Shown: positions 13,464-58,779 of the stretch, in pieces
Numbering within the stretch: position 1 is the stretch's first letter
How the letters are laid out: each line of letters begins with the position of its first letter
Source of the DNA: Candidatus Nomurabacteria bacterium
Lineage (GTDB): Bacteria; Patescibacteriota; Minisyncoccia; Phycocordibacterales; UBA918
Assembly: GCA_020632095.1 (NCBI GenBank)
Contig: JACKGF010000001.1
Span: forward strand, 262,549-326,548
Direction of reading: 5' to 3'
DNA: 64,000 nucleotides
Notes under the pieces: model-generated
The model's database searches: none
Told to the model about the DNA's origin: nothing
The model's input: the letters and a program-made list of their open reading frames with translations, nothing else
Translations under genes and position numbers: made by a program

Positions 13464-13548
13464 TTAACATTACTATATAGCTTAAAAAACGAAAAAGCCT
13501 CACGATGAAGCTATGAAACTTCTCCGTTGAGGCTTGTTTACTTTTGTC

Positions 13549-13569
13549 TCCGAAGGGTGGCCCTTCGGA
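13549..13569. repeat. palindromic hairpin repeat, copy 1 (TCCGAAGGG tgg CCCTTCGGA)
   Basis: Same 21-nt palindrome recurs at 13632 and 13889. Confidence 0.7.
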
Positions 13570-13631
13570 AAAAAACCCAAAATATCGGACTTATCCTCAT
13601 TAGTACCGTATTACGTGGCGTAAAGTAGTCT

Positions 13632-13651
13632 TCCGAAGGGTGGCCCTTCGG
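13632..13651. repeat. palindromic hairpin repeat, copy 2
   Basis: TCCGAAGGG tgg CCCTTCGG. Confidence 0.7.
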
Positions 13652-13654
13652 CTA

Positions 13655-13701
13655 AGGGGATACGTCCGTTATTTTTGCTATTTGTGTGTTCTAATATTTA
13701 A
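13655..13701. repeat. conserved intergenic motif AGGGGATAcGTCCGTTATTTTtGCTATTT...GTGTGtTcTAATATTTAac
   Basis: Near-identical 28-nt core recurs at 54833..54860 with a weaker third copy at 54930..54958. The tail GTGTG..TAATATTTA also recurs at 54896..54914. Confidence 0.6.
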
Positions 13702-13885
13702 CCTAAATTGGGCCTGTTCCTATGTTTAAAACACCAACTGACTCAACTGCTTTTGCTACTCGGTCATTACAGAAATACACGTAAGTTGTTTTCCCTTCCC
13801 GTTCGCTAACTCCTGTTACAGCGTGTGCATACTCAACCGGCACTTCCAGCTTTCTAAACCCCAGCTTGTCCAATAATATATGATA

Positions 13886-13912
13886 GTCTCCGAAGGGTGG
13901 CCCTTCGGAGAC
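13886..13912. repeat. palindromic hairpin repeat, copy 3 (extended 12-bp stem GTCTCCGAAGGG tgg CCCTTCGGAGAC)
   Basis: Perfect palindrome. Confidence 0.7.
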
Positions 13913-13926
13913 TCTTCTAAATACCT

Positions 13927-14190
13927 TTATCTCGCATCAACGGAAAACACTAGGCCACAAGCAACTAGAACTATCATTAGTACCGGCAACGCGCCCAGCA
14001 CAAGAAACGTTCTACTTGGCTTTCTTTTAAAATATCGAACCAGACCAGCAATAATAAAACCAACACTGACTATGAGCACCAGAGGAGTATAAAAGACGTG
14101 CCAAAATACAAGCCACGGTTGACCAAGATTAACAACTTGTTTAATTTCAAGTGGCATATCACTGAACGACATATTGGTCCTGTAATGCAA
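13927..14190 (-). CDS. small two-TM membrane protein, hypothetical
   Basis: 87-aa ORF with two hydrophobic helices; no recognisable family. Confidence 0.3.
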   Translation of the reverse strand: MHYRTNMSFSDMPLEIKQVVNLGQPWLVFWHVFYTPLVLIVSVGFIIAGLVRYFKRKPSRTFLVLGALPVLMIVLVACGLVFSVDAR

Positions 14191-14313
14191 ATATGCTAAT
14201 ACTAAGTTGCCAGCATATATGACACTAAAATAAATAATTCGATTCTTTGTTTTTGAAAAAAATTCTTACATAAAATTATTTTGTTTAAATTAGTAATCGT
14301 TAGGAATAAACAT

Positions 14314-14353
14314 AATTAACAACCCAGGGGTAGAACCCCTGGGTTGTTAATTA
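14314..14353. repeat. solo copy of IS200/IS605-type terminal hairpin (PATE-like), 15-bp stem
   Basis: TTAACAACCCAGGGG tagaa CCCCTGGGTTGTTAA. The 29-nt core ATTAACAACCCAGGGGTAGAACCCCTGGG is identical to the subterminal hairpin of the IS at 22524..22552. Confidence 0.55.
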
Positions 14354-14539
14354 AAGTGGCCCCAAAATAAACAAACAGAAGAATAGTCCGTATATAGAAA
14401 TAATGACTATATTATTAGATGCGTTGGCAATAAAATTCATAATTTAATACTACAGCAACACTATCCCCTCTCTCCCCACCACTGTGCAAAACCGCTAAAA
14501 ATCCCCAAAGTGCATTTTGTGCTAAAATGCTGATTACTT

Positions 14540-15922
14540 ATGTCTGAACACAATCGCGCGCTACGCACTCCCCCACAAAACGTCGATGCTGAAAAAGCCC
14601 TTTTAGGTGCGATTATCCTTAAGCCGGACGTTATGCACGACATCTCTGTGACAGTGTATCCAGAAAGCTTCTACGCCGACAAACACCGCGCCATTTTTGA
14701 TGCTATTCAAAAGATTTTTTCTAAAGGCGACCCAATTGACTTGGTCTCTGTTGTTACAAAATTAAAAGATATGAGCCAACTAGACCGAGTTGGCGGAGCC
14801 GCTTACATCACCGAACTAATCGAAACCGTCCCAGCCGCTGGGAATGCAATGTATTATTCTACCCAAGTACAAGACAAGGCGGTACTCCGCAACCTAATCC
14901 ACGCTGCTGATGATATTGCCGAGATTGGTTACTCCGACCCTGAAACCGTCGACGAGGCCTTGGACCAAGCCGAGAAAAAGATTTTTCAAGCTACCCAAGC
15001 TCCCTCTTCACAAAAATTCCGTCCGATTGGTAGTGCTTTAACCGAAGCTTGGGAAAGGTTTGAACACCTAACCGAAAACCCTCAAGATAAGCGTGGCGTT
15101 CAATCAGGCTTTACTGCTCTTGATAATGTTTTAGCTGGTTTCCAAAAATCCGACCTAATCATTTTGGCGGCTAGGCCGTCCATGGGTAAAACTACTTTCG
15201 CTCTCGACATTGCCCGTAACGCCGCTCTCTTGCACGGAGCTTCAGTGGGAATCTTTTCACTCGAAATGAGCGACCAACAGTTGGTCGACCGTATGTTGGC
15301 GGCTGAGTCTGGGGTTGATTCATGGAAGCTCCGCACTGGCCGACTTTCCAACGACCAAGAATACGAATCCTTGCAACAAGCGATGCAAAAGCTGCACAAA
15401 GCCCCAATTCACATTATTGACGAGGCAGCGATGAATATTGTGAAAATGCGTTCAGCTGCTCGCCGTCTTAAGAATGAGCATGGTCTAGATATGCTGATTG
15501 TGGACTACCTTCAGCTCATGTCTCCAACCCTGACCAAAGGTAGCGATTCGATGGTGCAACAAATCACTGAGATTTCCCGCTCACTCAAGATTCTGGCTAA
15601 GGAATTGGAGATTCCAGTTATTGCCCTCTCTCAGCTATCTCGTGCCGTTGAGCAACGTGGTGGTAAACCCCGACTGTCTGACCTCCGCGACTCCGGTTCA
15701 ATTGAGCAGGACGCTGACGTAGTTATGTTTATTCACCGTGAGGACAAGATGAACCGCGACAAAGAAGCCGAACGACCAAACATCGCCGAGATTATGATTG
15801 AAAAACACCGAAACGGTGCCGTCGGCCACTGCGAACTCTACTTCGACGGCGAACACGTCCGCTTCCTCAACCTAGACACCCACCACACCGCCGCCAGTGT
15901 GGGTGGAGGAGACGACTTTTGA
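14540..15922 (+). CDS. dnaB: replicative DNA helicase
   Basis: N-terminal DnaB domain (NVDAEKALLGAIIL). Walker A GARPSMGKT, Walker B LIVDYLQLM, and a RecA-like C-terminal domain. Confidence 0.9.
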   Translation: MSEHNRALRTPPQNVDAEKALLGAIILKPDVMHDISVTVYPESFYADKHRAIFDAIQKIFSKGDPIDLVSVVTKLKDMSQLDRVGGAAYITELIETVPAAGNAMYYSTQVQDKAVLRNLIHAADDIAEIGYSDPETVDEALDQAEKKIFQATQAPSSQKFRPIGSALTEAWERFEHLTENPQDKRGVQSGFTALDNVLAGFQKSDLIILAARPSMGKTTFALDIARNAALLHGASVGIFSLEMSDQQLVDRMLAAESGVDSWKLRTGRLSNDQEYESLQQAMQKLHKAPIHIIDEAAMNIVKMRSAARRLKNEHGLDMLIVDYLQLMSPTLTKGSDSMVQQITEISRSLKILAKELEIPVIALSQLSRAVEQRGGKPRLSDLRDSGSIEQDADVVMFIHREDKMNRDKEAERPNIAEIMIEKHRNGAVGHCELYFDGEHVRFLNLDTHHTAASVGGGDDF

Positions 15923-16123
15923 GCAAAACAAGGAGAAGCAAAGCTTCGACTATGAATTTGCTTATGCAGACGCTTAGTCAGAATGCTGGAAAATAAGGAG
16001 CTTGCGACTATATTTTCTGTATGCATAGCTCAGACCTCCAAGGGAGATTATGACTGTAGCGGGCTGCCAACCCACCCGAATTAAATCACTTAAGTCTATT
16101 TATAGTGTTACAATGTCCTCTAA

Positions 16124-16741
16124 ATGAACAACCTGGATAAGCTAATTTCATACTTCGAGACTTTTCCTGGAGTAGGCGCGCGCCAAGCCAAGCGGTTTGC
16201 TTTTCATGTTTTAACCATGAATGAAGCTGATACGGCAGAATTAGCAAAACTGATTGCAAATCTCAATCAAAGCGTAACCGAATGCGCCAGCTGCCACCGC
16301 TTTTTCTCCACCAACAATTCTGCCACCACAGTGTGTACTATTTGCAATTCCAGCAACCGCGACCACAACCGACTGCTGGTAGTCGAGCGTGATTCTGATG
16401 TACTGGCAATTGAACGCGCTGGCGTTTACGATGGGTTGTATTTTGTTTTTGGCGGGACTGTTCCGCTACTAAGCAGTAAAGAAAACAACAAGCTCCGTGG
16501 CGGCGCGCTTAAGGCAACAATTGAGACTCGTATTCCGGAAGGACTAAGCGAAGTAATCATGGGCTTCTCCATCAACCCAGACGGAGAAAACACCACCCGC
16601 TTCATCGAGTCAATTATCGGCGAAATCACTAAAAGCCACGAAGTAACCATTTCCCATCTCGGCCGTGGTCTCTCCACCGGCAGCGAACTAGAATACGCCG
16701 ACGCCGAAACCATCAAAAACGCTTTAAAAAATAGAGCTTAA
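16124..16741 (+). CDS. recR: recombination protein RecR
   Basis: Helix-hairpin-helix FPGVGARQAKRFAFHV, C4 zinc finger CASCHRF...CTIC, Toprim domain. Confidence 0.85.
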   Translation: MNNLDKLISYFETFPGVGARQAKRFAFHVLTMNEADTAELAKLIANLNQSVTECASCHRFFSTNNSATTVCTICNSSNRDHNRLLVVERDSDVLAIERAGVYDGLYFVFGGTVPLLSSKENNKLRGGALKATIETRIPEGLSEVIMGFSINPDGENTTRFIESIIGEITKSHEVTISHLGRGLSTGSELEYADAETIKNALKNRA

Positions 16742-16790
16742 TTTCTTCACACTATTCCGTCAAAAGTCTCCCGTTTTCCATAAAAAGTTC

Positions 16791-16824
16791 AAAAAACCTT
16801 TAGGTTAACCTAAAGGTTTTTTGG
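16791..16824. terminator. rho-independent terminator after recR
   Basis: AAAAAACCTTTAGGTTAACCTAAAGGTTTTTTGG. Confidence 0.6.
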
Positions 16825-16992
16825 ACTTTTCATTATTAAAATGTAGAAAGCCCCCTGTGAAGGAGGCTCTTTGAAACCAAACTCATCATGAGTATGCTAC
16901 TTCTTAAGAAAAAGTGCCAGACCTACACTACCCATACCGGCGAAGGCTAAGTGCATTGCGACCTGCTCTTGAGTACCCCTTCCCATCATAAA

Positions 16993-17589
16993 ATCAACAA
17001 CCACCGCTAAAAGCGGTGGTATGAACTCCAGCCTAGAAGGCATAAATTATTAGTGGTTAATGTTAACCTTTAGAATCTCGTTCTTGTTGCCATTTCACAT
17101 ACTTTCGTATCTGTTCTTCATTCAGACCCACACTGGATACACAGTACCCACGACTCCACAGGTGTCTTCCCCAGTATCGTTTGGTCATGGTTTTTTGTTC
17201 TTGAAATAATTTGAGAGCAGTTTTTCCTTTCAGGTATCCCATCATATCTGAAATGGAGTATTTTGGTGGTATGGAGATTATCATGTGGACGTGATCTGGT
17301 TGGATATTTATTTCTTCAATCGTTACTTGGTCTTTTCTTCCACAGAGTTGGTAGAAGTAGTTTCGTACCAATACTTCGGCTTTTCCTTCTAGGATTTTAT
17401 ATCGATATTTAGGACAAAATACGATATGATAAGTACACAGCCATACGGTGTGTGACAATTTCTTATATTGTGTTTTCATAGCTTCAGTGCCTTCATCACT
17501 GAAGCTATGTTAATAGTACTAGATAGACTGGTGGAACCTTTTTTTTGATCACCACCGCCGGAGGCGGTGGTTTAGGCTGGCGCAATTAA
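16993..17589 (-). mobile_element. IS200/IS605-family element (tnpA only), copy A, about 597 bp
   Basis: Essentially identical to 47796..48392 (one mismatch seen). Imperfect palindromes at both ends (CACCGCTAAAAGCGGTG and CACCGCCGGAGGCGGTG), typical of IS200/IS605 ends. Confidence 0.8.
17063..17479 (-). CDS. tnpA: IS200/IS605-family Y1 (HUH) transposase TnpA
   Basis: 138 aa. HxH motif in DHVHMIISIPPKYS and a catalytic Tyr region; identical protein to 47866..48282. Confidence 0.85.
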   Translation of the reverse strand: MKTQYKKLSHTVWLCTYHIVFCPKYRYKILEGKAEVLVRNYFYQLCGRKDQVTIEEINIQPDHVHMIISIPPKYSISDMMGYLKGKTALKLFQEQKTMTKRYWGRHLWSRGYCVSSVGLNEEQIRKYVKWQQERDSKG

Positions 17590-30715: not shown

Positions 30716-32635
30716 ATGTTTGGGGAAAATTATATTACTTATGTTGACAATCAGATGTATACTAAATACATGTCAACAAGTTCTTCGGCTGTGGTAAAGC
30801 GAGGTGTCACTAAGCGTGTGGCGGCCAAAAAAGCTGTCCGTAAAACCTCCATCAAAAAAACTCCGAAGAAAGTCCCCCTCAAAGCAAAAGCTATCAATAT
30901 CAAGGAAGCTGCCAAGTCTATCAAAAACACAGGCGCTATTAAGCGTAATCCTCTCGGTCACTTGCTAATGGAAAAGATGTTCCGCGAAGCTGGTTTTCGA
31001 GGTGGTATCTCCACTAAGGAATCTCTCCTCAAAGCCTACAGCACCGATGAGAGTATTTTTAGTATTCGCCCACAAGTTGTTATCCAACCAAAAAATCGAG
31101 GAGATGTTGAAATTGCTACCAAGGTAATCGCTAAAGAAACCAAACGTTTCGATTCCCTTTCCCTTACCCCAAGGGCCGCTGGTACTGGTCTTGGTGGTGG
31201 CTCGCTCACCGACTCCATCGTCATCGACATGTGCGCCCACCTAAACAAAATTGGTGAAGTAACTATCAAGAAAGACAAAATTACCTTTACAACTGAGCCG
31301 GGGGCAATGTGGCGCGATGTAGAAAAAAAATTAAAGACCCATGATGCCTACCTTCCACCCTACCCCGCCTCAAAAGATATTTGCAGTATTGGTGGCTCAG
31401 TTGGTAACAACGCCGCTGGTCCCGACTCACTTCGACACGGTCACTGCGCCGACTGGATAGAATCAATGGATGTCGTCTTGCATGACGGCTTCACCTACAC
31501 TATCAAGCCACTTTCCTACCGAGACTTCAAGACTCTCATCAAGCAAGACCATGAGTATGCCCGCATTGCCGAAAGAATTTTTAATTTAATTAGCAAAAAC
31601 GAAGCTGAGATCAAAAAGAACAAACCGGCCACTGCTAAAAACTCAGCCGGCTATCCGCTCTGGAGTGTAATACCTGAAGGAGTAGCAAAATTCAAAAAAG
31701 GTATCGGCAATTTCGATCTTACTCGCCTGATTGCTGGTAGCCAAGGCACCATTGGTATTATCACCAATCTCACCATGCGCGCCATTCCAATTCCTAAAAA
31801 CACCACCCTGATTACCATTCCAATTTTTGATTTAGAAGACGCGGCTAGCACTATCACCAAAGTACTGAAGTACAACCCAATCAACGTCGAAATTTTTGAC
31901 GCCCTCACCTTTGACCTAGCTCTACGCAACCCAAGCTTCTTTAAAGACCGTTTGGACAAAACACAATACTACCGCGTGATGTTTAACATGTACGCTACCT
32001 ATCATGTCCGCTTTGCTCGCAAAATACCTGAGTTTACAGTCTTAGTCACCCTAGACGAAGACACCACCAACGAAACAGATCCTGAAGAAATCGTAAAAGA
32101 AATTAATAGCGGTAAGGTCAAAGCCCGTGTGGTAAGGAATGCGATTGAATCTGAAATGTATTGGCAAATTCGACGTGCCAGCTACACTTTGTCAAAATTC
32201 CAAGACAAGACCAAGCGTCCGGCTGCTTTCCTCGAAGACATGACCGTCCCCCCAGAAAACTTATCTAAGTTTTTTGTGCAAATCAAACGTCTACTAAAGG
32301 AATTCAATATCACCGCCGCTGTTCATGGTCATGGTGGCAACGGACACTTCCATTTCTACCCCCTACTTGATTTCACCAGCAAAGCCACCCCCGCTCTAGT
32401 TATGAAAATGGCTGACACTTTCTTTGATACGGCCGTTAAATTCAAAGGTGATATTTGTGGCGAGCACAACGATGGTATTATCCGTACCCCTTTCCTTGAT
32501 AAAATGTTTTCTAAAAAAATGCTCGATCTGTTTAAACAAACCGAACACACTTTCGACCCTGACGACATCTTCAACCCTGGCAAAAAAGTAAACCCCCGCT
32601 TCGACATCAAAGAAACGATGCGCACTACAAATTAA
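30716..32635 (+). CDS. FAD-binding oxidoreductase (GlcD/D-lactate dehydrogenase-like, PCMH fold) with Lys-rich N-terminal extension
   Basis: AAGTGLGGGS FAD-binding motif; C-terminal FAD-oxidase domain. The true start may be internal (for example MEKMF at about 30968). Confidence 0.6.
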   Translation: MFGENYITYVDNQMYTKYMSTSSSAVVKRGVTKRVAAKKAVRKTSIKKTPKKVPLKAKAINIKEAAKSIKNTGAIKRNPLGHLLMEKMFREAGFRGGISTKESLLKAYSTDESIFSIRPQVVIQPKNRGDVEIATKVIAKETKRFDSLSLTPRAAGTGLGGGSLTDSIVIDMCAHLNKIGEVTIKKDKITFTTEPGAMWRDVEKKLKTHDAYLPPYPASKDICSIGGSVGNNAAGPDSLRHGHCADWIESMDVVLHDGFTYTIKPLSYRDFKTLIKQDHEYARIAERIFNLISKNEAEIKKNKPATAKNSAGYPLWSVIPEGVAKFKKGIGNFDLTRLIAGSQGTIGIITNLTMRAIPIPKNTTLITIPIFDLEDAASTITKVLKYNPINVEIFDALTFDLALRNPSFFKDRLDKTQYYRVMFNMYATYHVRFARKIPEFTVLVTLDEDTTNETDPEEIVKEINSGKVKARVVRNAIESEMYWQIRRASYTLSKFQDKTKRPAAFLEDMTVPPENLSKFFVQIKRLLKEFNITAAVHGHGGNGHFHFYPLLDFTSKATPALVMKMADTFFDTAVKFKGDICGEHNDGIIRTPFLDKMFSKKMLDLFKQTEHTFDPDDIFNPGKKVNPRFDIKETMRTTN

Positions 32636-47569: not shown

Positions 47570-47803
47570 TTATTTTCTGACAGCATTTTGAACTATCTCA
47601 GGCGAAAAACCCTCAGGGACTCTACCTGTACTGGCGTATTCATACAACGCCACTTTAAATATCGCATTCAAAACAGATGAAATCGCACTAACAGCAATTA
47701 ATGATAAAACACCAATTGTAACAACCAAAAACAACACCATTACATTTGGAACAAGCAAAACTATTCCAAACCCTAGGACAACAATCCCGAACATAATCAA
47801 CAA
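47570..47803 (-). CDS. small two-TM membrane protein whose 5' end abuts or overlaps the IS200 copy B left end
   Basis: 77-aa ORF. The TTG start at 47803 lies inside the IS boundary (47796); the first internal ATG is at 47794. Confidence 0.3.
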   Translation of the reverse strand: MLIMFGIVVLGFGIVLLVPNVMVLFLVVTIGVLSLIAVSAISSVLNAIFKVALYEYASTGRVPEGFSPEIVQNAVRK

Positions 47804-48392
47804 CCACCGCTAAAAGCGGTGGTATGAACTCCAGCCTAGAAGGCATAAATTATTAGTGGTTAATGTTAACCTTTAGAATCTCGTTCTTGTTGCCATTTCA
47901 CATACTTTCGTATCTGTTCTTCATTCAGACCCACACTGGATACACAGTACCCACGACTCCACAGGTGTCTTCCCCAGTATCGTTTGGTCATGGTTTTTTG
48001 TTCTTGAAATAATTTGAGAGCAGTTTTTCCTTTCAGGTATCCCATCATATCTGAAATGGAGTATTTTGGTGGTATGGAGATTATCATGTGGACGTGATCT
48101 GGTTGGATATTTATTTCTTCAATCGTTACTTGGTCTTTTCTTCCACAGAGTTGGTAGAAGTAGTTTCGTACCAATACTTCGGCTTTTCCTTCTAGGATTT
48201 TATATCGATATTTAGGACAAAATACGATATGATAAGTACACAGCCATACGGTGTGTGACAATTTCTTATATTGTGTTTTCATAGCTTCAGTGCCTTCATC
48301 ACTGGAGCTATGTTAATAGTACTAGATAGACTGGTGGAACCTTTTTTTTGATCACCACCGCCGGAGGCGGTGGTTTAGGCTGGCGCAATTAA
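47796..48392 (-). mobile_element. IS200/IS605-family element, copy B (about 597 bp, essentially identical to 16993..17589)
   Basis: Identity with copy A begins and ends at the same terminal palindromes. The right end supplies the last codons and stop of the ORF 48375..49058. Confidence 0.8.
47866..48282 (-). CDS. tnpA: IS200/IS605-family transposase TnpA (identical to 17063..17479)
   Basis: Identical 138-aa protein. Confidence 0.85.
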   Translation of the reverse strand: MKTQYKKLSHTVWLCTYHIVFCPKYRYKILEGKAEVLVRNYFYQLCGRKDQVTIEEINIQPDHVHMIISIPPKYSISDMMGYLKGKTALKLFQEQKTMTKRYWGRHLWSRGYCVSSVGLNEEQIRKYVKWQQERDSKG

Positions 48393-51117: not shown

Positions 51118-51189
51118 GGTCCCATCGTCTAGCGGCTAGGACACTTGGTTCTCATCCAAGAAACCGGGGTTCGATTCCCCGTGGGATCA
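51118..51189 (+). tRNA. tRNA-Glu (anticodon CUC), CCA not encoded
   Basis: Cloverleaf: acceptor GGTCCCA / TGGGATC, D-arm GTCTAGCGGCTAGGAC, anticodon stem CTTGG/CCAAG with loop TTCTCAT, T-arm CGGGG TTCGATT CCCCG. Resembles bacterial tRNA-Glu. Confidence 0.75.
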
Positions 51190-51238
51190 CAAATCAGCCG
51201 GCCGAAATGTGAATACATTTCGGTCGTTGCTGTTTGTA

Positions 51239-51257
51239 GGTCCCACGGGGAATCGAA
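51239..51257. repeat. inverted copy of the tRNA-Glu T-arm/acceptor 3' segment
   Basis: GGTCCCACGGGGAATCGAA is the reverse complement of TTCGATTCCCCGTGGGACC (1 mismatch vs the tRNA). Confidence 0.6.
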
Positions 51258-51373
51258 GAGAGCTTCTGGCGAAGCCGGACGAGAAAGCCTTCTCGTCCGA
51301 ACAGAAGCGGCGGGGTCGCGTAACACAATATTTTTGAAGCTTTAGCTGAAGAAAATATTGATGTGAAGGTGAC

Positions 51374-51393
51374 CGATTCCCCGTGGGATCACA
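51374..51393. repeat. 20-bp direct repeat of the tRNA-Glu 3' end (CGATTCCCCGTGGGATCACA); att-like
   Basis: Identical to 51172..51191 inside the tRNA. Confidence 0.65.
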
Positions 51394-51448
51394 CATTGAC
51401 AAAACACTATTTTAGTGTATTATTTTAATAGTTTTGATTATCCTCCAG

Positions 51449-52400
51449 CTACCCCTCAAGTAGGACAGATTGCTCATAATAATACTCACTCGAAATCCTA
51501 AAATCAATACACTCTTTCGGTCGGTCATTCAAGAAGGCATGAATCTCATTCAATTCTTCTTGAGTAACAGACGCAATGTCTCTCCGCTTTGGAACAAAGC
51601 ATCTAATCCAACGATTAGTATTCTCTACCAGTCCCTTCTCCCAAGAATGATAAGGGTGGCAGAAATAGATTGGAGCCTGTATGATTTGTTCTAGTTCCGT
51701 CCAGTGACGGAATGCAATGTCGTTGTCGGTGGTGATACTCTTGACTATAATATTGCTAAACATTTTAGAGAACGCTGCACTGATTGTGTGGCGTTTTCTA
51801 TTGGGTAACTGACGTACCAAGCTGTATTTAGTTAAACGGTCAGTAGCCACTAGAAGTACGTATGGACTGTACTTAGAGACAATGAAGTCTAGTTCATAGT
51901 GACCTAGCTCATGGCTACCAAGAGGACGAATATCTATATATTTACGGCCATCATCAGTTGAGTTTATGTGTGGTCCGTTTCGGACCACTTTTTCTTTTTG
52001 TTCCAACGCCAGAATAGTCGATATTCCAGACCACGACTTTCTATGAACTTGTATATAGCTTTGGCGGAACAGGTAACACCGAGCTCTCGTTTGAGATGTC
52101 CACTGATTTGTTTAGGGGTCCACTTCTGCTCTAGTTTGTCTTCTACGAAGCTTACTAGGAAACTATCCATTGCCACCTTGAGACACTGACGTTTAGCCCG
52201 CCAACGACGTTGACGTTTACTTTTAGTTGGGCTTGCTTGGCGTCATAGACTCCATTAACCCTATTCTTCTTTAGTTCCTGACTGATGGTGTTGGGACTAC
52301 GTTTGAGGAAGATGGCTATTTCTCTGATCAAACTCCCTGCGTTCAATAACTTTTCAATTACGAAACGCTCCTCAAATTGTATGTGTCTGTATGTTTTCAT
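51449..52400 (-). pseudogene. frameshifted IS30-family transposase
   Basis: HTH N-terminus (SLIREIAIFLKRSPNTISQEL) and the DDE C-terminus (HPYHSWEKGLVENTNRWIRCFVPK) lie in different frames. Confidence 0.65.
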
Positions 52401-52439
52401 AGACAGCTAATTTACTTTATAGCTGTCCTACTTCAAAGG
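51454..52439 (-). mobile_element. degenerate IS30-family element with terminal inverted repeats (CTGTCCTACTT.A..GG)
   Basis: The transposase reading frame is broken into three ORFs (51449..52006, 51964..52176, 52155..52400). The IRs are CCTCAAGTAGGACAG at 51454 and CTGTCCTACTTCAAAGG at 52423. Confidence 0.65.
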
Positions 52440-52479
52440 TGTCTGGGGGTATTCTTTCCACTAACATGCGAGGTATCGA

Positions 52480-52932
52480 ATGTCCACAACAGCACAACCA
52501 CAACAACCTTCTCACGACTTTTGGTCAGATCTTGTAGAAGGTACTGATTACAAACCTAAAGGCAACTGGGAACCCATCGGAAGACAGCAAGCTCCGAACG
52601 CTGATTGTCACACGGCAGCCGGTTATGTTTACTTCACATTCGATCCGGCAAAGAAGCACGAAATGACTGAACCGATCCCATTTGAACTGCTTCCGGTTAA
52701 TTGGCTCAAAGAAGACCAGAGATATCGTGCCTCATTCGGATACTTGGTTCGTCGTGCCGACACGGAAGAAATTGTCGCCATCATACACCAAGGAAACGGC
52801 TGGTGGTGGAAGTTTCGTCTCAAGCAACAATCAAAGCAGTACCTAGAAACAGTAGACAAAAATGGTTGGGCTTGGCAAACACTCACAAAGTGTATGTTTG
52901 GTCGAATCTTCCACCATTTGCACGAGAAGTAA
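52480..52932 (+). CDS. hypothetical Trp-rich protein between the two IS30 elements
   Basis: 150-aa ORF; GC about 48%, above background. Confidence 0.35.
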   Translation: MSTTAQPQQPSHDFWSDLVEGTDYKPKGNWEPIGRQQAPNADCHTAAGYVYFTFDPAKKHEMTEPIPFELLPVNWLKEDQRYRASFGYLVRRADTEEIVAIIHQGNGWWWKFRLKQQSKQYLETVDKNGWAWQTLTKCMFGRIFHHLHEK

Positions 52933-53054
52933 CCTCAAGGTAACTCCCCGATCCTAAAGACCATATGGTTCGCCCAGTGGTCTTTTTTATGTATAGACAA
53001 CATCTGTTTCACAATACGGTTCCAATTCGTACTACTTAGGCCTAAGTTCAATAA

Positions 53055-54083
53055 GTAAGTGCAACACTTTAATATAATTAAAGTGTTATGCAATACAACC
53101 ATTTATCAATAGAAGAGCGCGAAAAAATCCAAGAACTTCTCTGGCAAAAGAAATCCATCAGACACATAGCCAAAGAACTGGGGCGTAGCCCCAGTTCTAT
53201 TGCACGTGAGATCAAGAAAAACAACTCACAACAAAAGAAACGGTACACACCTAGACTGGCACACGAACGCGCCCTAAAGAAGCGCTCTTCTCGTGGTCAA
53301 TCTAAACTAGAGACTGACGCTGTATTGTGTGACTACGTCACCACTCACTTAAAACTAGGCTGGTCACCAGAGCAAATAGCAGCCACCGCTCCTAGTCACA
53401 TATCTCATGAAGCTATCTATCAATATGTCTATGCTCAGGTGTACCGAAACGGACACGGTTACGTTAAACCAGGTAGAGAAGACTTGCGACCATATTTAGC
53501 TCGTAGAAAGAAGCGTCGTACTCCCCAAGGACTACGTAAATCACACAGAATCCTCAAAGGAACCCTGCCTTCTATAGACGATAGACCTGAAGTGGTTAAT
53601 CTCCGTACGGAGATAGGTCACTGGGAAGATGACTTGGTCGTATCACGTGAGTCAGCTGATAATTTGAAAACAATTAACGAGAGAGTCTCTGGTATTGTGT
53701 TTATCTCTAAGGTACCTGATGGTACTGCTGAAGCTGGTGATACTGCCGTATCACAACGTTTGAAGAACGTTCCAAAGGAATACCGTCAGACACTCACTCG
53801 TGACCGAGGGTCAGAGAATGTTAAGTATGAAAAACTGGCTACTGAACTAAACATTCAGATATTCTTTGCCCACCCCTATAGTTCTTTCGAGCGTGGCAGC
53901 AATGAAAACCTTAACGGTTTGATACGTCGGTTCTTTCCGAAGAAGACTAACTTTCAGTTAGTCACCGATGCTGAGATACGGAGAGTTGAGTATCTCCTTA
54001 ACTCTCGTCCGCGCAAGAGACTTGGCTGGAAGACTCCCTATGAGGTATTCTATGAACTTACGGGTGTTGCACTTCAAGTTTGA
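53055..54083 (+). mobile_element. IS30-family insertion sequence, apparently intact
   Basis: Imperfect IRs around GTGTTGCACTT (53055..53070 and 54065..54080). An extra IRR-like copy GGGTGTTGCAGTTCAAACC lies at 54104..54122. Confidence 0.6.
53088..54083 (+). CDS. IS30-family DDE transposase
   Basis: N-terminal HTH (SIRHIAKELGRSPSSIAREI), DDE core, and C-terminal HPYSSFERGSNENLNGLIRRFFPK. Confidence 0.8.
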   Translation: MQYNHLSIEEREKIQELLWQKKSIRHIAKELGRSPSSIAREIKKNNSQQKKRYTPRLAHERALKKRSSRGQSKLETDAVLCDYVTTHLKLGWSPEQIAATAPSHISHEAIYQYVYAQVYRNGHGYVKPGREDLRPYLARRKKRRTPQGLRKSHRILKGTLPSIDDRPEVVNLRTEIGHWEDDLVVSRESADNLKTINERVSGIVFISKVPDGTAEAGDTAVSQRLKNVPKEYRQTLTRDRGSENVKYEKLATELNIQIFFAHPYSSFERGSNENLNGLIRRFFPKKTNFQLVTDAEIRRVEYLLNSRPRKRLGWKTPYEVFYELTGVALQV

Positions 54084-54193
54084 ATCTACCGTATGGTATT
54101 TGGAGGGTGTTGCAGTTCAAACCAGAATTTAAGTATCCCCATTACCTAATGGTTGATAATTTGTTGTCTCATTTTAAGGGGGCGGACCGTGCA

Positions 54194-54439
54194 TCACTTC
54201 GGATGGTTAATGATTGAAACAATAATGTAGTGAGGATCTACAATATGGAAGTAGAAACGATAACTTTTATTAATTCTTCCTTGCCAAAGATTTTCAAAAC
54301 CTTGATACTTTTTTGTTTTTAGTGAGGGGTGTCTGAAATCCTCAATCAAATATGAAAACTGTTTATCTGTCTTTTTTTGAAGCTGTTTTGGTAATGACTT
54401 ATATTGCTTAATCGCTCCATCGGTAAGCCTAATCAACAT
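54194..54439 (-). CDS. type II toxin, RelE/ParE superfamily
   Basis: 81 aa with RelE-like C-terminal pattern (KSYRFYFHIVD...IIVSIINHPK). Overlaps the upstream antitoxin gene by 11 nt. Confidence 0.6.
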   Translation of the reverse strand: MLIRLTDGAIKQYKSLPKQLQKKTDKQFSYLIEDFRHPSLKTKKYQGFENLWQGRINKSYRFYFHIVDPHYIIVSIINHPK

Positions 54440-54713
54440 ACTGTTTTAGCTTCTTATGGAACTCGGTAGTGCTACCAAACTCAATATACTTACCCCGCTT
54501 GATATCTTCAAGACCTTGAGTAAGTGCTTGTGCTAAATCACTATCAACTGTCGATGTCTGTGCTTCAAGAATTATTCTTCCGTTTACTTGCTGGACAGTA
54601 AGTATCTGTCCCTCTTTGAGCGAAAGGGAATCACGTAGTTTTTTAGGAAGTGTAAGCAATCCACGTTGTTGTAATTTGATTGTATTCATGAATTCAGTAT
54701 ATATGAATTTCAT
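54429..54713 (-). CDS. type II antitoxin, AbrB/MazE (SpoVT-AbrB) fold
   Basis: KLQQRGLLTLPKKLRDSLSLKEGQILTVQQVNGRIILEA swapped-hairpin domain. Confidence 0.6.
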   Translation of the reverse strand: MKFIYTEFMNTIKLQQRGLLTLPKKLRDSLSLKEGQILTVQQVNGRIILEAQTSTVDSDLAQALTQGLEDIKRGKYIEFGSTTEFHKKLKQYVD

Positions 54714-54832
54714 CTTTTGTACAGTCCAACATCTCTCTCTTAAATAGCCTCAGACTTTCTAAAATCTTGTATTCAAAACTATGATTAAGTGACGTATTAC
54801 TCACAAAATTTCAAAATCGGTGGAGTGGTAAT

Positions 54833-54958
54833 GGGGATAAGTCCGTTATTTTAGCTATTTCTACCTTCCGGAGGTCGGTCCTTCGTAAAACTTTTGTGTG
54901 CTGTAATATTTAGCGTTAATACAAAGGTAATAGGGATACGTGTTATTTTTGTTTATTT
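54833..54958. repeat. second locus of the GGGGATA.GTCCGTTATTTT.GCTATTT motif family (two copies plus embedded imperfect palindrome)
   Basis: Copies at 54833..54860 and 54930..54958 match 13657..13684. GTGTGcTgTAATATTTAgc (54896..54914) matches the tail of the 13.6-kb copy. Confidence 0.6.
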
Positions 54959-55100
54959 TATGCTTTAAATTAAACTCCATTCAAAAATTACAACCCGGTT
55001 TTAGTATAACTACTCCCTATTACCTCTTGAACATTTTACTCATGAGATAAAAAAGACCCCTCTCCATGTGGGGTCTAATTGGTGCCGGGTCTGTGTCTTG

Positions 55101-55382
55101 CTAACTCCGCAAGCTTGAATGATATCGAGACCAAGCCATTCGCAACTCTCGAATACGGCGTGAGTTGTCGCCACCGAAAGAGATACCTTTCATGACCTTT
55201 TCGACATCCTCGGTAAGCACTCCGTTTTTTTTAAGCTCAAACTCTCGCAACAACTCTTCTCTTGTTTTAAGCAACTGACCCATTCTTCTCTCCTTCTCTG
55301 TTAAATGATTACTAAAGTAATGCATTTTGCATAATACAACTATCAACATAAAATACAATACTAAATAGATAGGGACAATCAT
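55101..55382 (-). CDS. hypothetical small protein with N-terminal TM helix
   Basis: 93-aa ORF in the island. Confidence 0.3.
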   Translation of the reverse strand: MIVPIYLVLYFMLIVVLCKMHYFSNHLTEKERRMGQLLKTREELLREFELKKNGVLTEDVEKVMKGISFGGDNSRRIRELRMAWSRYHSSLRS

Positions 55383-55518
55383 GATTTCCCGAACTCCTAC
55401 CGTTCTTTCCGTCTTTTCCAGCTTTTATTTTAAAACAATTTCATCAACCCAACTATCCTTGCTATTTTGATCTCCGGTATCAACTCGAATGAGCAGTGGC
55501 ATGGATGTATTAAATAAC

Positions 55519-55545
55519 TACGGAGGACCGTCCTCCGTAGATGCA
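55519..55545. repeat. perfect hairpin CTACGGAGGA ccg TCCTCCGTAG
   Basis: 10-bp stem, intergenic. Confidence 0.5.
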
Positions 55546-55685
55546 ATTTTAGACTGGAGCGAAAAAAATGTATGTCATTTTTAACCCACTAAAATCAACC
55601 GCCCTTCCCCGCCCTTCACACCGTTCGCAAACTCACGGCGATAGGCTTTATAGGTAAATAGACTAGTTGCAAGCGGATCAAAAAG

Positions 55686-55967
55686 CTACTGCATGTAATC
55701 AATAACAATTTCAATTATGCTTTTAGTCTCGTCAGAGCAATTCTTAAAACTTATACGATCCAATACATTAACGCCGTAATTTCTAATCAGCTCACTCAAT
55801 AATGCGTGACAAAAAGATTGAGTTAATGACTCAACATTTTCAAAATCTAACACCAAGTCTTCACCACCTTCCAAAATTGGTGTAATTAACTCTAATCTGA
55901 TGTTCTTAGCCTTATCTTTATCTTCCGCAAACGAACCAGCTATTGGATAAATTTCTATTATTTTCAT
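55686..55967 (-). CDS. STAS-like small protein (DUF4325-type anti-sigma-antagonist-like fold), partner of the upstream GHKL ATPase
   Basis: 93 aa. Overlaps the upstream gene's stop by 4 nt (ATGA). Size and composition fit DUF4325/STAS-like proteins; assignment is by similarity, not proven. Confidence 0.45.
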   Translation of the reverse strand: MKIIEIYPIAGSFAEDKDKAKNIRLELITPILEGGEDLVLDFENVESLTQSFCHALLSELIRNYGVNVLDRISFKNCSDETKSIIEIVIDYMQ

Positions 55968-56938
55968 ATAAATTTAGGCTTTTTATATTTTTTTTCTCGT
56001 CTGGAGCGGACAGTAGAAGTGTATACCTCACGAATACTTTGTAATAATGCGGAAAAATTTTCGTTATCATCTAGGGTCATATCAACACCAATTACCGTAC
56101 CATTCCATATAGGCAGTCCTTCTTCTAAAGTGTGACGGTCAGCAAAAGGATCACTATTTAAACCCGTGTCAGGTTTTTGCTTTTTTAACAATTTAAACAA
56201 GGTGTCACCACTATATATTACAAAATAGTCCTCATTTATTCGAGAGATAGACTTAGTAAAAAATAAACCCGCTCCTGCATTATAGTCAGTACCACCTTCC
56301 TTACTTGTTGTCCCAGTAATTCCTGGTGTTAATGCTAGTTGGATAGCATCCTTATCTGTCTTAACAATATGAAAGCGACTGATTGTTTTTTTAATACCAA
56401 CCCCGGTATCTACAATTCCAAGGCGTACTGTATTCGTTTTAGCATGATATTGAGCAGCAACAAAAGCTCCATGTTCTGAAGCAGAGTGCTCGAGAACATT
56501 TCTCACTAATTCACTTACTATATATTTTATCGACTGAGACTGCTGCTTATCAAGATGAAGTAAAGGAATCATATCTTCAATGAAATGAGAGAGAACTTTT
56601 GCATCCTTAATTTGAGTAATCGGTATAAAACGCCCTGCTGATTCATGTTCAACAATATCCATTTCAGAATTCAATTGAAGAAACCGGAAAAGACGCATCC
56701 TCTCGAAATAGTGTTTTGAAGTAGCAGTAAATTTCTCGCACAAAATTGGTTTTTCTTGATCACTTTCTGCACGAACTTTTACACCTAAAGAAGCAATCAT
56801 ACACAAAACAACAGGATGAACAGACATCCATTTTTCATTTGCTGTTATGTAAATTTCTTCGGGATTAGAAAAATCTACCAACTTAATAAATGCATTTATA
56901 TTGCCCAGAAACGCACTATTTGGAATATGTATTTTCAT
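55964..56938 (-). CDS. GHKL-family ATPase (RsbW/HATPase_c_2-like) with about 140-aa N-terminal domain of unknown function
   Basis: N-box ELVRNVLEHS, G1 DTGVGI, G2 GAGLFFT of histidine-kinase-like ATPases. Confidence 0.6.
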   Translation of the reverse strand: MKIHIPNSAFLGNINAFIKLVDFSNPEEIYITANEKWMSVHPVVLCMIASLGVKVRAESDQEKPILCEKFTATSKHYFERMRLFRFLQLNSEMDIVEHESAGRFIPITQIKDAKVLSHFIEDMIPLLHLDKQQSQSIKYIVSELVRNVLEHSASEHGAFVAAQYHAKTNTVRLGIVDTGVGIKKTISRFHIVKTDKDAIQLALTPGITGTTSKEGGTDYNAGAGLFFTKSISRINEDYFVIYSGDTLFKLLKKQKPDTGLNSDPFADRHTLEEGLPIWNGTVIGVDMTLDDNENFSALLQSIREVYTSTVRSRREKKYKKPKFI

Positions 56939-56953
56939 ATAACTTACCTACTA

Positions 56954-56987
56954 TACCGGGAATTTACTAAAAACACAATTCCCGGTA
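56954..56987. promoter_or_regulatory. 34-bp palindromic operator, copy 1 (TACCGGGAATT-N12-AATTCCCGGTA)
   Basis: Perfect 11-bp inverted arms, 16 nt upstream of the GHKL ATPase start. Confidence 0.6.
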
Positions 56988-57021
56988 ATTTAAGCCATAT
57001 TTTGACAATTTTGTATATTTT

Positions 57022-57055
57022 TACCGGGAATTTACTAAAAACACAATTCCCGGTA
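57022..57055. promoter_or_regulatory. 34-bp palindromic operator, copy 2 (identical direct repeat of copy 1)
   Basis: Identical 35-nt unit TACCGGGAATTTACTAAAAACACAATTCCCGGTAA. The two copies bracket an AT-rich putative promoter segment (TTGACA at 57002..57007). Confidence 0.6.
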
Positions 57056-57115
57056 AAATTTCTTTATACTTAGGTACGAACGGGTCCCAAATCGCTCCCT
57101 TTAGGGTCACTAGCA

Positions 57116-57146
57116 GAAAAAGAGCACGCCTAGCGTGCTCTTTTTT
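57116..57146. terminator. bidirectional rho-independent terminator
   Basis: AAAAAGAGCACGCctagGCGTGCTCTTTTTT. Confidence 0.6.
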
Positions 57147-57343
57147 CGACACAATATCTAGTTTCAATGATTACTCTTTAACGATAAGTGATTCTGTTAA
57201 AAGCCTTTGTTTTCATACACTTTATGTTACTAAAGTGTTGCGTTAGATTCTTGAAGGTAGCTTACGTAAGCTTGACTATACCTAATAAATAGGTTATATT
57301 TTAAAGTGGCTGTCCACACTCGGATAAACAAAGGAGAAACACT

Positions 57344-57775
57344 ATGAGAATCAGCACACTCTTTTCCATTCTTTCCCTCTTCGTCATCACCCCGATGGCG
57401 ATCCACCTAGGAGAAAAAACCGACTGGTTGTGGATCAATGGAGCCGGCAGCCGCGACGCAATCGAATCCGCTTGCGCCATGATCTTTATCATCGGTTGCC
57501 TCGCTTTGTGGTACAGGCTGTCTTGGATGTCTATTGACAGTGATCGGCAAGAAAGAGGAGACTTCAATCACATGATCATCATGGGCCTTACAACTATGCT
57601 GAGTGCTTTCTGCTTCAGCTATCTGTACGCCTTCACCGTTGCACCAATCAAGAATGGTGTTTGGTTCGACGGATGGCTGATTTACATGGTCATAGGGCTG
57701 CTTCCGGTCATCATGGAGCTCAATTGCTCTGTTGGAGAAATTATCAAAAACCGAAGCGCTCGAAGCATTCATTAA
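57344..57775 (+). CDS. orphan 4-TM membrane protein with own promoter, strong RBS and terminator
   Basis: Promoter TTGACT-17-TATATT (57270..57298), RBS AAAGGAGAAA, ORF 143 aa at about 49% GC, terminator 57806..57843. Minus-strand ORFs overlapping it are judged spurious. Confidence 0.55.
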   Translation: MRISTLFSILSLFVITPMAIHLGEKTDWLWINGAGSRDAIESACAMIFIIGCLALWYRLSWMSIDSDRQERGDFNHMIIMGLTTMLSAFCFSYLYAFTVAPIKNGVWFDGWLIYMVIGLLPVIMELNCSVGEIIKNRSARSIH

Positions 57776-58054
57776 TGCATCCGCCTGCCAAGGTGAAACA
57801 GGAATCGCCTGGCTCACACTTGGGTCAGGCGGTTTTCTTTTTATTTTAAAGAACCCCTTGCAAGGAAATAGAGGAGGAAATAGGATCATCAAAAATGGGG
57901 TCATGACCCATTCTTAGGGCGAACACCTCCTCACAGTATGTTCAAGATGCAAGGAATCTATAAGTGCTCCCCGCCATACATCTCCACCTAATGACACGCC
58001 ATTAACCACCACCTGACGAACTTCCTTGACCACTTATATAGGAATCAATACACA

Positions 58055-58603
58055 CTACTCCCCTGTCGTGTCGCGTAGCTTCCCTACTTCCAAAATTTTT
58101 CTTTTTTCTTCAGCGTTTTCTTCACCAGCTACCGAAGCAGGGTCTGCTGGATCTAGCTCATTGTGTCCTAGTTTATCTAAATGAGACAGTACTTCCTCAA
58201 TGGTGCTATCTACAAAATTTCCGTAGGCCACAACAACAACAGGAATATGATTTGGGTTTTCTAATTTCTCCACTAACTTTCCTTTAAGATATTCTGGCTC
58301 AAAAATGTAAATTTTTTCTGGCTGTAGTTCTTTTACTGTTTCAGACAACTCCACCGAAATTGCCTTAAAGTATCTTAGTAGATTTTGCTCGGTAAGTTCT
58401 TCATGTGGCGAGCCAGAACCATACCGTATACCATTACCACTTCTAACAAAAAACCCTTCGTTGTCGCTGTAGGTAGCAGGATGCTCTTCCACCTCATCTA
58501 AATATGTAAGCTTTCCTTCTTTAAGGCTATACAACTTACCGTGTTCTTTAGCTGAAATCACCACTAGTCCATTTAGTTTGTTTCTATTTTTAATTGTATT
58601 CAT
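58055..58603 (-). CDS. hypothetical protein (acidic C-terminus)
   Basis: 182-aa ORF; no confident family. Confidence 0.35.
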   Translation of the reverse strand: MNTIKNRNKLNGLVVISAKEHGKLYSLKEGKLTYLDEVEEHPATYSDNEGFFVRSGNGIRYGSGSPHEELTEQNLLRYFKAISVELSETVKELQPEKIYIFEPEYLKGKLVEKLENPNHIPVVVVAYGNFVDSTIEEVLSHLDKLGHNELDPADPASVAGEENAEEKRKILEVGKLRDTTGE

Positions 58604-58779
58604 ACAACTACTACAACAAATCTTAGCTGATGTCGCTCACTTATATTTTTCAAACTGATTAAAGGGCCATTTATACAAACCCGAAGCATCTTGAGCTCGT
58701 GACATATCTTCCGATCAGATACAAAGGGTCAGGAGCATTTTTTCTAGGGAAAGGGTCGAAATAAAAAGTATTTTTTGAC

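Follow-up and report, generated by a model that had tools for sequence, protein, structure and literature searches.

The 64-kb stretch of Candidatus Nomurabacteria DNA analysed here (contig JACKGF010000001.1; hereafter the window) contains a single tRNA gene, recognised by both ARAGORN and Rfam as tRNA-Glu(CTC), and this report concerns the repeated copies of the 3' end of that gene and the short segment of DNA that they bound. A preliminary description of the sequence had noted a triplicated tRNA 3' end and had taken it as the mark of an accessory island extending from 51118 to 58700. The triplication is confirmed, as there is an exact direct repeat and a real inverted copy, both seen in independent assemblies. 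However, the direct copies bound 202 bp and not 7.6 kb, and the features that lie within and beyond these 202 bp are collected in Table 1.

Table 1. Features at and to the right of the tRNA-Glu(CTC) gene (window coordinates)
Feature	Position	Strand	Basis or remark
tRNA-Glu(CTC) gene	51118..51190	+	ARAGORN; Rfam tRNA 60.6 bits; CCA not encoded
Direct repeat copy 1, attL-like core, CGATTCCCCGTGGGATCACA	51172..51191	+	exact match
Structured non-coding cassette, 'type A', 202 bp	51192..51393	+	empty site in L055/L056; folding z-scores
H1, terminator-like hairpin, 12 bp, 4-nt loop GAAT	51199..51226	+	tip of the long palindrome H0; strain-hypervariable
Inverted tRNA 3' end and trailer, 3' arm of helix H0	51229..51257	+	5' arm 51170-51198
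H2 (51262-51268/51302-51308, invariant) enclosing H3 (51276-51285/51290-51299)	51262..51308	+	four-variant alignment
H4 (base helix GGTCGC/GTGACC) and long H5 hairpin	51314..51374	+	6 compensatory pairs
Direct repeat copy 2, attR-like, displaced native tRNA 3' end	51374..51393	+	exact repeat; L055 alignment
Promoter-like TTGACA-N16-TATTAT	51396..51423	+	kept behind the unoccupied tRNA in L055/L056; faces orf150
Degenerate IS30-family copy (HTH_38, rve fragments)	51442..52449	-	27-nt inverted repeats; outside the cassette
orf150, Trp-rich orphan, 150 aa	52480..52932	+	no Pfam/PADLOC match
Intact IS30-family transposase gene	53088..54083	+	only distantly related to the IS30 remnant
ParE/RelE-like toxin (54194-54439) and MazE/AbrB-like antitoxin (54429-54713)	54194..54713	-	
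GHKL ATPase (55964-56938) and DUF4325 STAS-like protein (55686-55967)	55686..56938	-	Pfam

The direct repeat corresponds to the 3' 20 nt of the tRNA, counted with two trailer bases. Exact copies of CGATTCCCCGTGGGATCACA occur twice in the window (51172-51191 and 51374-51393), with no third copy there even when up to three mismatches are allowed, and a match appears in 0 of 100 dinucleotide shuffles. If one mismatch is tolerated the direct repeat reaches 23 nt and extends into the tRNA trailer. The inverted copy is exact over 17 nt (51241-51257), and in its longer form pairs 51229-51257 with 51170-51198, a span of 29 nt with 83% complementarity; towards the distal direct copy it is 100% complementary over 15-17 nt. 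It starts with GGTCCCA, the 5' acceptor strand of the same tRNA.

The same junctions are found in the independent assemblies L002, L074 and L001, and these three assemblies together with the shuffles rule out an assembly artefact or a chance match. Three other sources of the repeats were rejected. ARAGORN finds no second tRNA or pseudo-tRNA on either strand, and the minus strand lacks a T-stem partner; the inverted repeats of the neighbouring IS30 insertion sequences bear no relation to the tRNA; and an origin as a retroviral-type primer-binding site does not agree with an inverted arm that pairs with the trailer rather than with CCA.

Empty and occupied tRNA sites

Comparison with relatives provides further insight into what the repeats bound. 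L055 and L056 have an unoccupied tRNA-Glu with CACATTGACAAATACAATTTTAAATGTAGTAT directly 3' of the tRNA, and the tRNA end and flank in these genomes align with window positions 51374-51430, that is, with the distal copy and its flank. In the window the sequence 3' of the distal copy is CACATTGACAAAACACTATTTTAGTGTATTAT, the promoter-like site. The trailer CACATTGACAAA, which directly follows the unoccupied tRNA in L055 and L056, is thus found in the window behind the distal copy, and therefore the distal copy is the displaced native tRNA end. As the proposed island has this displaced end and its native trailer at its left margin, the IS30 copies and the toxin-antitoxin, GHKL/STAS and orphan genes lie outside the unit bounded by the attachment (att) repeats. 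The inserted unit can be written either as 51192-51393 or, equivalently, as 51172-51373.

A second pair of occupied and empty sites is provided by L047, which carries a 183-bp insert with a 24-nt direct repeat, and L040, which is empty; the L047 sequence after the second repeat copy matches the L040 sequence 3' of the tRNA. In the more distant relative L041/L042, homology to the window covers exactly 51118-51382 at 81% identity, and the flanks are unrelated on both sides. The ends of the cassette, as set by the empty site, are AATCAGCC... and ...GGTGAC, which are not inverted repeats of each other, and the junction GGTGAC/CGATTC is exact in the window, L041 and L057. Presence of the cassette is patchy with respect to protein relatedness, since it is absent from L054 and L055 (81-84% identity) and present in L042 (75%). 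This patchiness, together with the varied occupancy of the site described below, favours the gain and loss of the cassette through site-specific recombination.

The direct repeat is what an insertion into the 3' end of the tRNA has left behind, with the empty site seen in relatives, and the earlier suggestion of site-specific integration at the tRNA is supported by the unoccupied tRNA of L055/L056 and by the trailer displaced behind the distal copy. The search for an empty tRNA-Glu site proposed in the preliminary description gives such a site for the 202-bp cassette (L055/L056, and L040 against L047), but, in the data covered, no close genome with an empty site for the 7-kb region as a whole. 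The search for further copies of the 20-bp repeat likewise gives a divided answer: there are none within the window, but related inserts occur behind other tRNAs in relatives.

Conserved hairpins and an arm that follows the tRNA

The cassette is highly structured, with a folding z-score against shuffles of -10.6 as RNA and -9.7 as DNA. Both DNA strands fold, although the plus strand folds better and is favoured by G·U pairs. There is no credible open reading frame (ORF) in the 202 bp, only hairpin-crossing ORFs without a family match, and Rfam 15 searched with 51185-51400 at E values up to 10 gives nothing credible beyond the tRNA itself. The defining motifs of tmRNA, RNase P RNA, signal recognition particle RNA, Y RNA, hammerhead and T-box are absent on inspection by eye.

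In an alignment of four variants (the window, L001, L041 and L075), 97% of the predicted pairs are retained and 20 pairs have changes on both sides, whereas none of 500 column shuffles scores as high and slid partners give 0-2 such pairs. Structure is conserved here with compensatory changes. Helices H2 to H5 form a two-branch core (51262-51374), within which the sequence of H3 varies with its pairing retained (5 pairs are changed on both sides) and the base helix of H4 contains a G·T pair, which is formed on the plus strand only. H2, H4 and the junctions are nearly invariant, while H1, H3 and H5 are hypervariable yet paired.

Between the window and L001 all 8 differences across about 3.5 kb fall inside H1 and amount to three compensated pairs, one wobble pair that becomes Watson-Crick and one loop base, and L075 has a third version of the hairpin. 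These strain differences look like block replacement rather than point-by-point selection, and template-switch correction of quasi-palindromes is expected to give blocks of compensated pairs. The inverted copy could then be purely mutational, arising by template switching at the perfect terminator hairpin that carried the palindrome on into the end of the tRNA, with the direct repeat produced by slippage or duplication and the structure without function. The inverted copy is indeed centred on H1 and takes in trailer bases, and the H1 changes do come in blocks of compensated pairs between near-identical strains, but such an origin leaves unexplained the conserved H2-H5 core, the exact GGTGAC/CGATTC junction of the window, L041 and L057, the pairs of empty and occupied sites, and the appearance of the complete layout behind tRNAs for Glu, Gly and Arg. 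We consider it very improbable.

The inverted arm changes with the tRNA next to it. The T-stem of the L041 tRNA is GGAG/CTCC where that of the window is GGGG/CCCC, and the inverted and distal copies change alike; the arm thus changes in step with the T-stem in L041 (a G-C pair becoming A-U) and, in L075, with the trailer (an A-U pair becoming C-G). From position 51192 to the right, the window and L075 share 98% identity, whereas leftwards L075 has a NUDIX gene and tRNA-Gly(TCC), and its inverted arm GGTAGCGGGTGAGAAGAATCGAA is the reverse complement of the tRNA-Gly 3' end over 19 of 19 nt. The arm directly upstream of this inverted arm resembles a decayed tRNA-Gly end, and the Gly-type inverted arm faces a Glu-type distal copy. 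A separate feature of L075 is that at 54-676 the NUDIX gene stands alone between tRNA-Gly(TCC) and an apparently decayed copy of its 3' end, a segment that may be a one-gene insert accreted ahead of an older cassette.

A similar arrangement is seen in L035: 3' of tRNA-Arg(CCG) come a terminator hairpin, the T-arm of this tRNA in inverted copy (GGAGGATTCGAAC), a hairpin and then a degenerate direct copy of the tRNA-Arg 3' end; in L047 the inverted copy is split. The layout common to these inserts is a tRNA end, a terminator hairpin, an inverted tRNA end, one or two conserved hairpins and a direct tRNA-end copy. The inverted arm always matches the tRNA behind which it sits, and the architecture recurs behind Glu, Gly(TCC) and Arg(CCG) tRNAs. 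The logic of attL and attR accounts for the direct copies but not for the inverted arm.

An alternative explanation takes the 200 nt for a non-coding RNA gene of the host, transcribed together with tRNA-Glu and not a mobile insert; the tRNA-like parts would act in the RNA, either as a 17-bp minihelix resembling an acceptor and T-arm (51239-51255 with 51374-51390) for processing by RNase P or RNase Z, or as a helix sequestering the 3' half of the pre-tRNA. Functional RNAs typically combine a conserved core with peripheral stems that vary in sequence but stay paired; moreover, G·U pairs occur on the plus strand only, the orientation is that of the tRNA, the terminator-like H1 is present, and the inverted copy opens with the tRNA's own 5' acceptor strand (GGTCCCA). 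The minihelix is not conserved, however, as L041 is without the distal acceptor part and L075 opposes a Gly arm to a Glu distal copy. In addition, the direct repeat runs into the trailer, which is not tRNA, unoccupied sites exist, the cassette is found behind three different tRNAs, and no Rfam family matches. A host RNA gene of this kind is in our judgement unlikely, although an RNA role is compatible with mobility, as a mobile cassette can encode an RNA.

An insertion hotspot and the genes to its right

In relatives, tRNA-Glu(CTC) lies just 3' of an FAD-oxidoreductase gene (window ortholog 30716-32635) with the left synteny kept, and the content to the right of the tRNA is wholly different in every one of them. 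In L063, L065, L066-L069, L071 and L072 a large serine recombinase gene lies directly against the tRNA, whose end is exchanged for a version encoding CCA, and a rolling-circle Rep gene comes next. L041, L047, L057 and L075 contain tandem arrays at the tRNA with the newest insert next to it, and behind the degenerate distal copy of L057 the sequence resembles the end of the serine-recombinase element. The contigs L038, L061, L062, L064 and L070 end inside the T-arm, which would fit allelic branching at that point. The tRNA-Glu gene is an insertion hotspot.

The serine-recombinase element of these marine relatives (L066 7938-11620, also L063, L065 and L067-L069) is compact; besides the serine recombinase and the rolling-circle Rep it encodes two proteins, of 59 and 240 aa. 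Motifs of the GCTTCGTAGCGAAAGG type occur in the hairpins between its genes, and no attR or far end was found within the 5.8 kb available. A tblastn search of the window for a remnant of the relatives' serine recombinase returned only the antisense of the tRNA itself, and a short ATCAGCC/ATCGAA pattern is common to this element and the cassette by eye only. At the same hotspot L054, the closest relative having a long contig, carries at 12301-16943 the tRNA-Glu (with a CCA-encoding end) followed by genes for a helix-turn-helix protein, a 1106-aa AAA_11/AAA_12 helicase and a SIR2-domain protein, and the helicase-SIR2 genes look like a defence island. With regard to a phage origin, three scans of viral contigs, one with the tRNA end and one with each of two core motifs, returned either nothing or only chance matches in high-GC coding DNA.

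A hairpin of about 66 nt was also encountered in the course of these comparisons (L040 309-374, L045 631-698, L047 3604-3669, L057 12830-12895 and L027 8932-8997). Its stem sequence is invariant, several of its pairs are compensatory, and at its apex it carries a GAGCGTAGCGAA motif that resembles the CS-6 box of ssoA origins; Rfam has no entry for it. It lies 3' of tRNA-Glu in Kaiserbacteria-like contigs and 3' of tRNA-Arg in one contig from Saccharibacteria, and in one case it lies apart from tRNA genes. Homology of the type A cassette to the hairpin of the inserts that we designate type B was considered and rejected: a GGGGTCG...GTGACC helix is common to both, but the covariance model of the type B hairpin (R1) misses the window, and the likeness is one of architecture only.

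The left side of the tRNA also differs in the window. In every relative examined tRNA-Glu adjoins the FAD-oxidoreductase gene, whereas the two are separated in the window by a GATase gene and 18.5 kb of genes on the minus strand; L038 has a GATase that is 82% identical, and adjacency of GATase and tRNA is common to L038 and the window. As the tRNA follows the GATase gene in the window and the FAD-oxidoreductase gene in the relatives, there is therefore a rearrangement breakpoint 5' of the tRNA as well. Elsewhere in the window, direct copies of an IS200-like element of about 598 bp (16992-17589 and 47795-48392, with Y1_Tnp ORFs at 17063-17479 and 47866-48282) flank 30.2 kb (17590-47794). L001, a contig of a metagenome-assembled genome from NCBI, joins the outer flanks through a single IS200-like copy and is either a deletion or excision variant or an assembly collapse.

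To the right of the cassette the gene content is as listed in the preliminary description, from the IS30 remnant through to the GDSL lipase-FtsX-ABC cluster that lies beyond the orphan genes. The IS30 remnant shows the marks of its family, namely parts of an HTH_38 and DDE (rve) transposase, inverted repeats at its ends and a target duplication of 3 bp, TAT (51439-51441 and 52450-52452). It is absent from L074, which belongs to the same population, and an intact 315-aa version lies at the same place in L075. Because of the TAT duplication and this polymorphism, the remnant is the result of ordinary transposition. In L074, without the insertion sequence, the promoter-like site lies about 50 nt 5' of the orf150 start, and orf150, which has one other protein cluster only among 5.8 billion sequences, is probably a native gene behind the tRNA promoter.

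Other features of this side were observed in passing. In PADLOC the GHKL protein and the DUF4325 STAS-like protein correspond to successive N-terminal segments of the model of DrmA, a DISARM protein (E = 1.5e-15 and 7e-4); each is encoded by a small gene, and the pair stands alone. A perfect 35-nt direct repeat (56954-56988 and 57022-57056), each copy of which is a hairpin (TACCGGGAATT...AATTCCCGGTA), lies a short way upstream of the GHKL gene. A 711-bp segment (54794-55504, with a 93-aa ORF at 55101-55382) is missing from L028 and L032, which come from another sample, with flanks more than 99.9% identical.

The island extending from 51118 to 58700 would be a single decayed integrative element that entered through the tRNA-Glu att site and lost its integrase. 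It would account for genes of an accessory type (two IS30 copies, orphans, the toxin-antitoxin pair, and the GHKL and STAS genes with their likeness to part of DrmA), the DNA 3' of tRNA-Glu is different in each relative, and integrative elements do use this tRNA in relatives. The sole displaced tRNA end, however, is 202 bp from the tRNA and is followed by a trailer homologous to the L055 empty site; there is no tRNA-end copy at or near 58700, nor any further copy in the window at up to three mismatches; and the IS30 remnant has its own polymorphic 3-bp duplication. Composition is no more deviant than in other parts of the window, with a dinucleotide z-score of 1.6-2.0 over 50-56 kb that is not above several other parts, and the proteins of the proposed island have no homologue in the relatives' loci. 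Repeats at both ends, as expected of a tRNA island, are present for the 202-bp unit and not for 51118-58700. A single island of this extent is quite improbable, and the 7-kb stretch, which the data do not show to be one element, is read here as ordinary variable DNA beside a tRNA hotspot.

Several particulars of the preliminary description can be settled here. That no integrase gene is present is borne out, since the ORFs of 51-59 kb encode neither a tyrosine nor a serine recombinase, and hence none lies beside the tRNA-proximal junction, and the DDE transposases of the two IS30 copies are the only recombinases in the region. A lost integrase or decayed island, on the other hand, leaves the structural conservation with compensatory changes and the tRNA-tracking arm unexplained, and the G+C content of the orphan genes, described as elevated, is within the normal range of the window. 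The repeats and gene content are not in conserved synteny in relatives; had they been, this would have spoken against an insertion. For the 7-kb region, exact-protein look-ups led to the same population only, and a GATase-based genome scan led only to distant relatives (at most 57% identity) without the tRNA.

A proposed mini-element and its relation to known systems

Taking these results together, we propose, and consider likely, that a hairpin-rich, ORF-less cassette of about 200 bp was put into the T-loop/3' end of tRNA-Glu(CTC) by site-specific recombination, and that it belongs to a family of mini-elements that use tRNA ends. In this model the proximal 20-nt core copy would complete the tRNA, and the distal copy would be the displaced native end with the native promoter-like trailer and orf150 still behind it. 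The inverted copy would not be an att scar but would form the 3' side of a 29-bp helix capped by H1, with the tRNA end and trailer as its 5' side. The family would consist of miniature non-autonomous elements behind Glu, Gly and Arg tRNA genes of Kaiserbacteria-like bacteria of the candidate phyla radiation (CPR). Both the movement of the cassette and the reason for its inverted tRNA end we infer from these arrangements: a recombinase encoded elsewhere may act in trans, and the tRNA-end hairpin may be an attachment site or a strand-specific folded element, for example a single-strand origin left from rolling-circle elements. The cassette may itself be a minimal derivative of the rolling-circle integrative elements that occupy this tRNA in relatives. 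An unoccupied site would read tRNA-Glu...GGGATCA followed by CACATTGACA, and an excised circle or hairpin would carry the junction GAAGGTGAC-CGATTCCCCGTGGGATCACA-AATCAGCC (GGTGAC-core-AATCAGCC).

Several points weigh against this proposal. There are four variants of the type A cassette, all from metagenome assemblies, and template switching can also produce compensated pairs in perfect DNA palindromes with no selection at work. L075 may have been assembled as a chimera of two cassette copies across the shared core, although its left half shows the Gly-matched copy even so. Architecture is the only link between type A and the type B, C and D inserts of relatives: model R1 has no match in the window, the type A covariance model (R2) matches only the window and L041/L042, and neither nhmmer nor covariance-model searches give any similarity between the cassette and the serine-recombinase/Rep element or other loci. 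In the window the cassette has no linked recombinase, and a 200-bp circle is an unlikely substrate for recombination. Finally, the direction of an event cannot be proved from a repeat-flanked indel, so that the difference may reflect insertion or precise loss in L055.

We regard as rather unlikely a more far-reaching version, in which the cassettes would be an undescribed class of CPR mini-integrative elements whose att site is a folded hairpin duplicating the tRNA 3' end, retargeted between Glu, Gly and Arg and serviced in trans by Rep/recombinase elements. Retargeting would occur by a change in the hairpin arm, or by its regeneration on integration, in the manner of CTX-phi attP or integron attC. 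If this were so, tRNA 3' ends would be platforms on which small cassettes accumulate.

For annotation, the consequence is that a repeated tRNA end beside accessory genes need not bound those genes; here it bounds 200 bp. Integrative elements targeted to tRNAs are normally kilobases long and carry their own integrase. What we see instead is an apparent family of ORF-less, structure-constrained inserts of about 150-260 bp with an internal arm matched to the local tRNA, which points to a folded att site that mimics its target or to RNA pairing with the tRNA end. We predict further cassette copies behind other tRNAs, each with a matching arm. The mobile elements of CPR bacteria are poorly known, and if the proposal is correct these inserts would offer a tractable short system with clear empty and occupied alleles in metagenomes.

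With regard to known systems, the cassette resembles a miniature inverted-repeat transposable element in being small, non-coding, structured and present at more than one locus, with its enzyme presumably acting in trans. It differs in that its ends are not terminal inverted repeats, it is flanked by 20 nt copied from the target and not by a short target duplication of fixed length, and insertion is site-specific for a tRNA end.

The single-strand origins (sso) of rolling-circle plasmids and integrative elements are non-coding, orientation-specific clusters of hairpins that work by their structure more than by their sequence (PMC4598088, PMC4595007). The cassette is also non-coding, orientation-specific and composed of multiple hairpins, and relatives have a Rep element at the same tRNA. 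In relatives only, small inserts and intergenic hairpins of the Rep element have an apical GCGTAGCGAA that resembles CS-6 (TAGCGT). The window has neither a GCGTAGCGAAA-like CS-6 motif at up to one mismatch nor a Rep gene, and its cassette accordingly does not show the set of ssoA hallmarks (CS-6 in a terminal loop, an RSB site and a linked Rep gene).

Integron attC and CTX-phi attP are attachment sites that act as folded single strands. Similarities to these include an imperfect palindrome with an inverse core and core (here H0, 29 nt, 83%), an inverted pair separated by a variable structured spacer, a stem that duplicates the target duplex, small promoterless cassettes that gather at one site, and strand-biased folding. 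In contrast to them the cassette has no linked recombinase of the IntI or XerCD type and its target is the T-arm/3' end of a tRNA; no GTTRRRY core, dif-like sequence or IntI gene is found in the region.

The closest described kind is the cis-mobilizable element (CIME) with tandem accretion at tRNA genes, an att-flanked remnant of an integrative element from which integrase and transfer genes have been lost (PMC5704250). Like a CIME, the 202-bp unit keeps attL and attR with no integrase or transfer genes inside; its direct repeats are the 3' end of the target tRNA, the tRNA is reconstituted, no recombinase lies within, and tandem arrays occur at the same tRNA in relatives. On the other hand it is ten to a hundred times smaller, at 202 bp, it contains no gene remnants, and no parent element of similar sequence was found; and, in a further departure from a CIME, its hairpins are conserved with compensatory changes and its inverted tRNA end changes with the tRNA.

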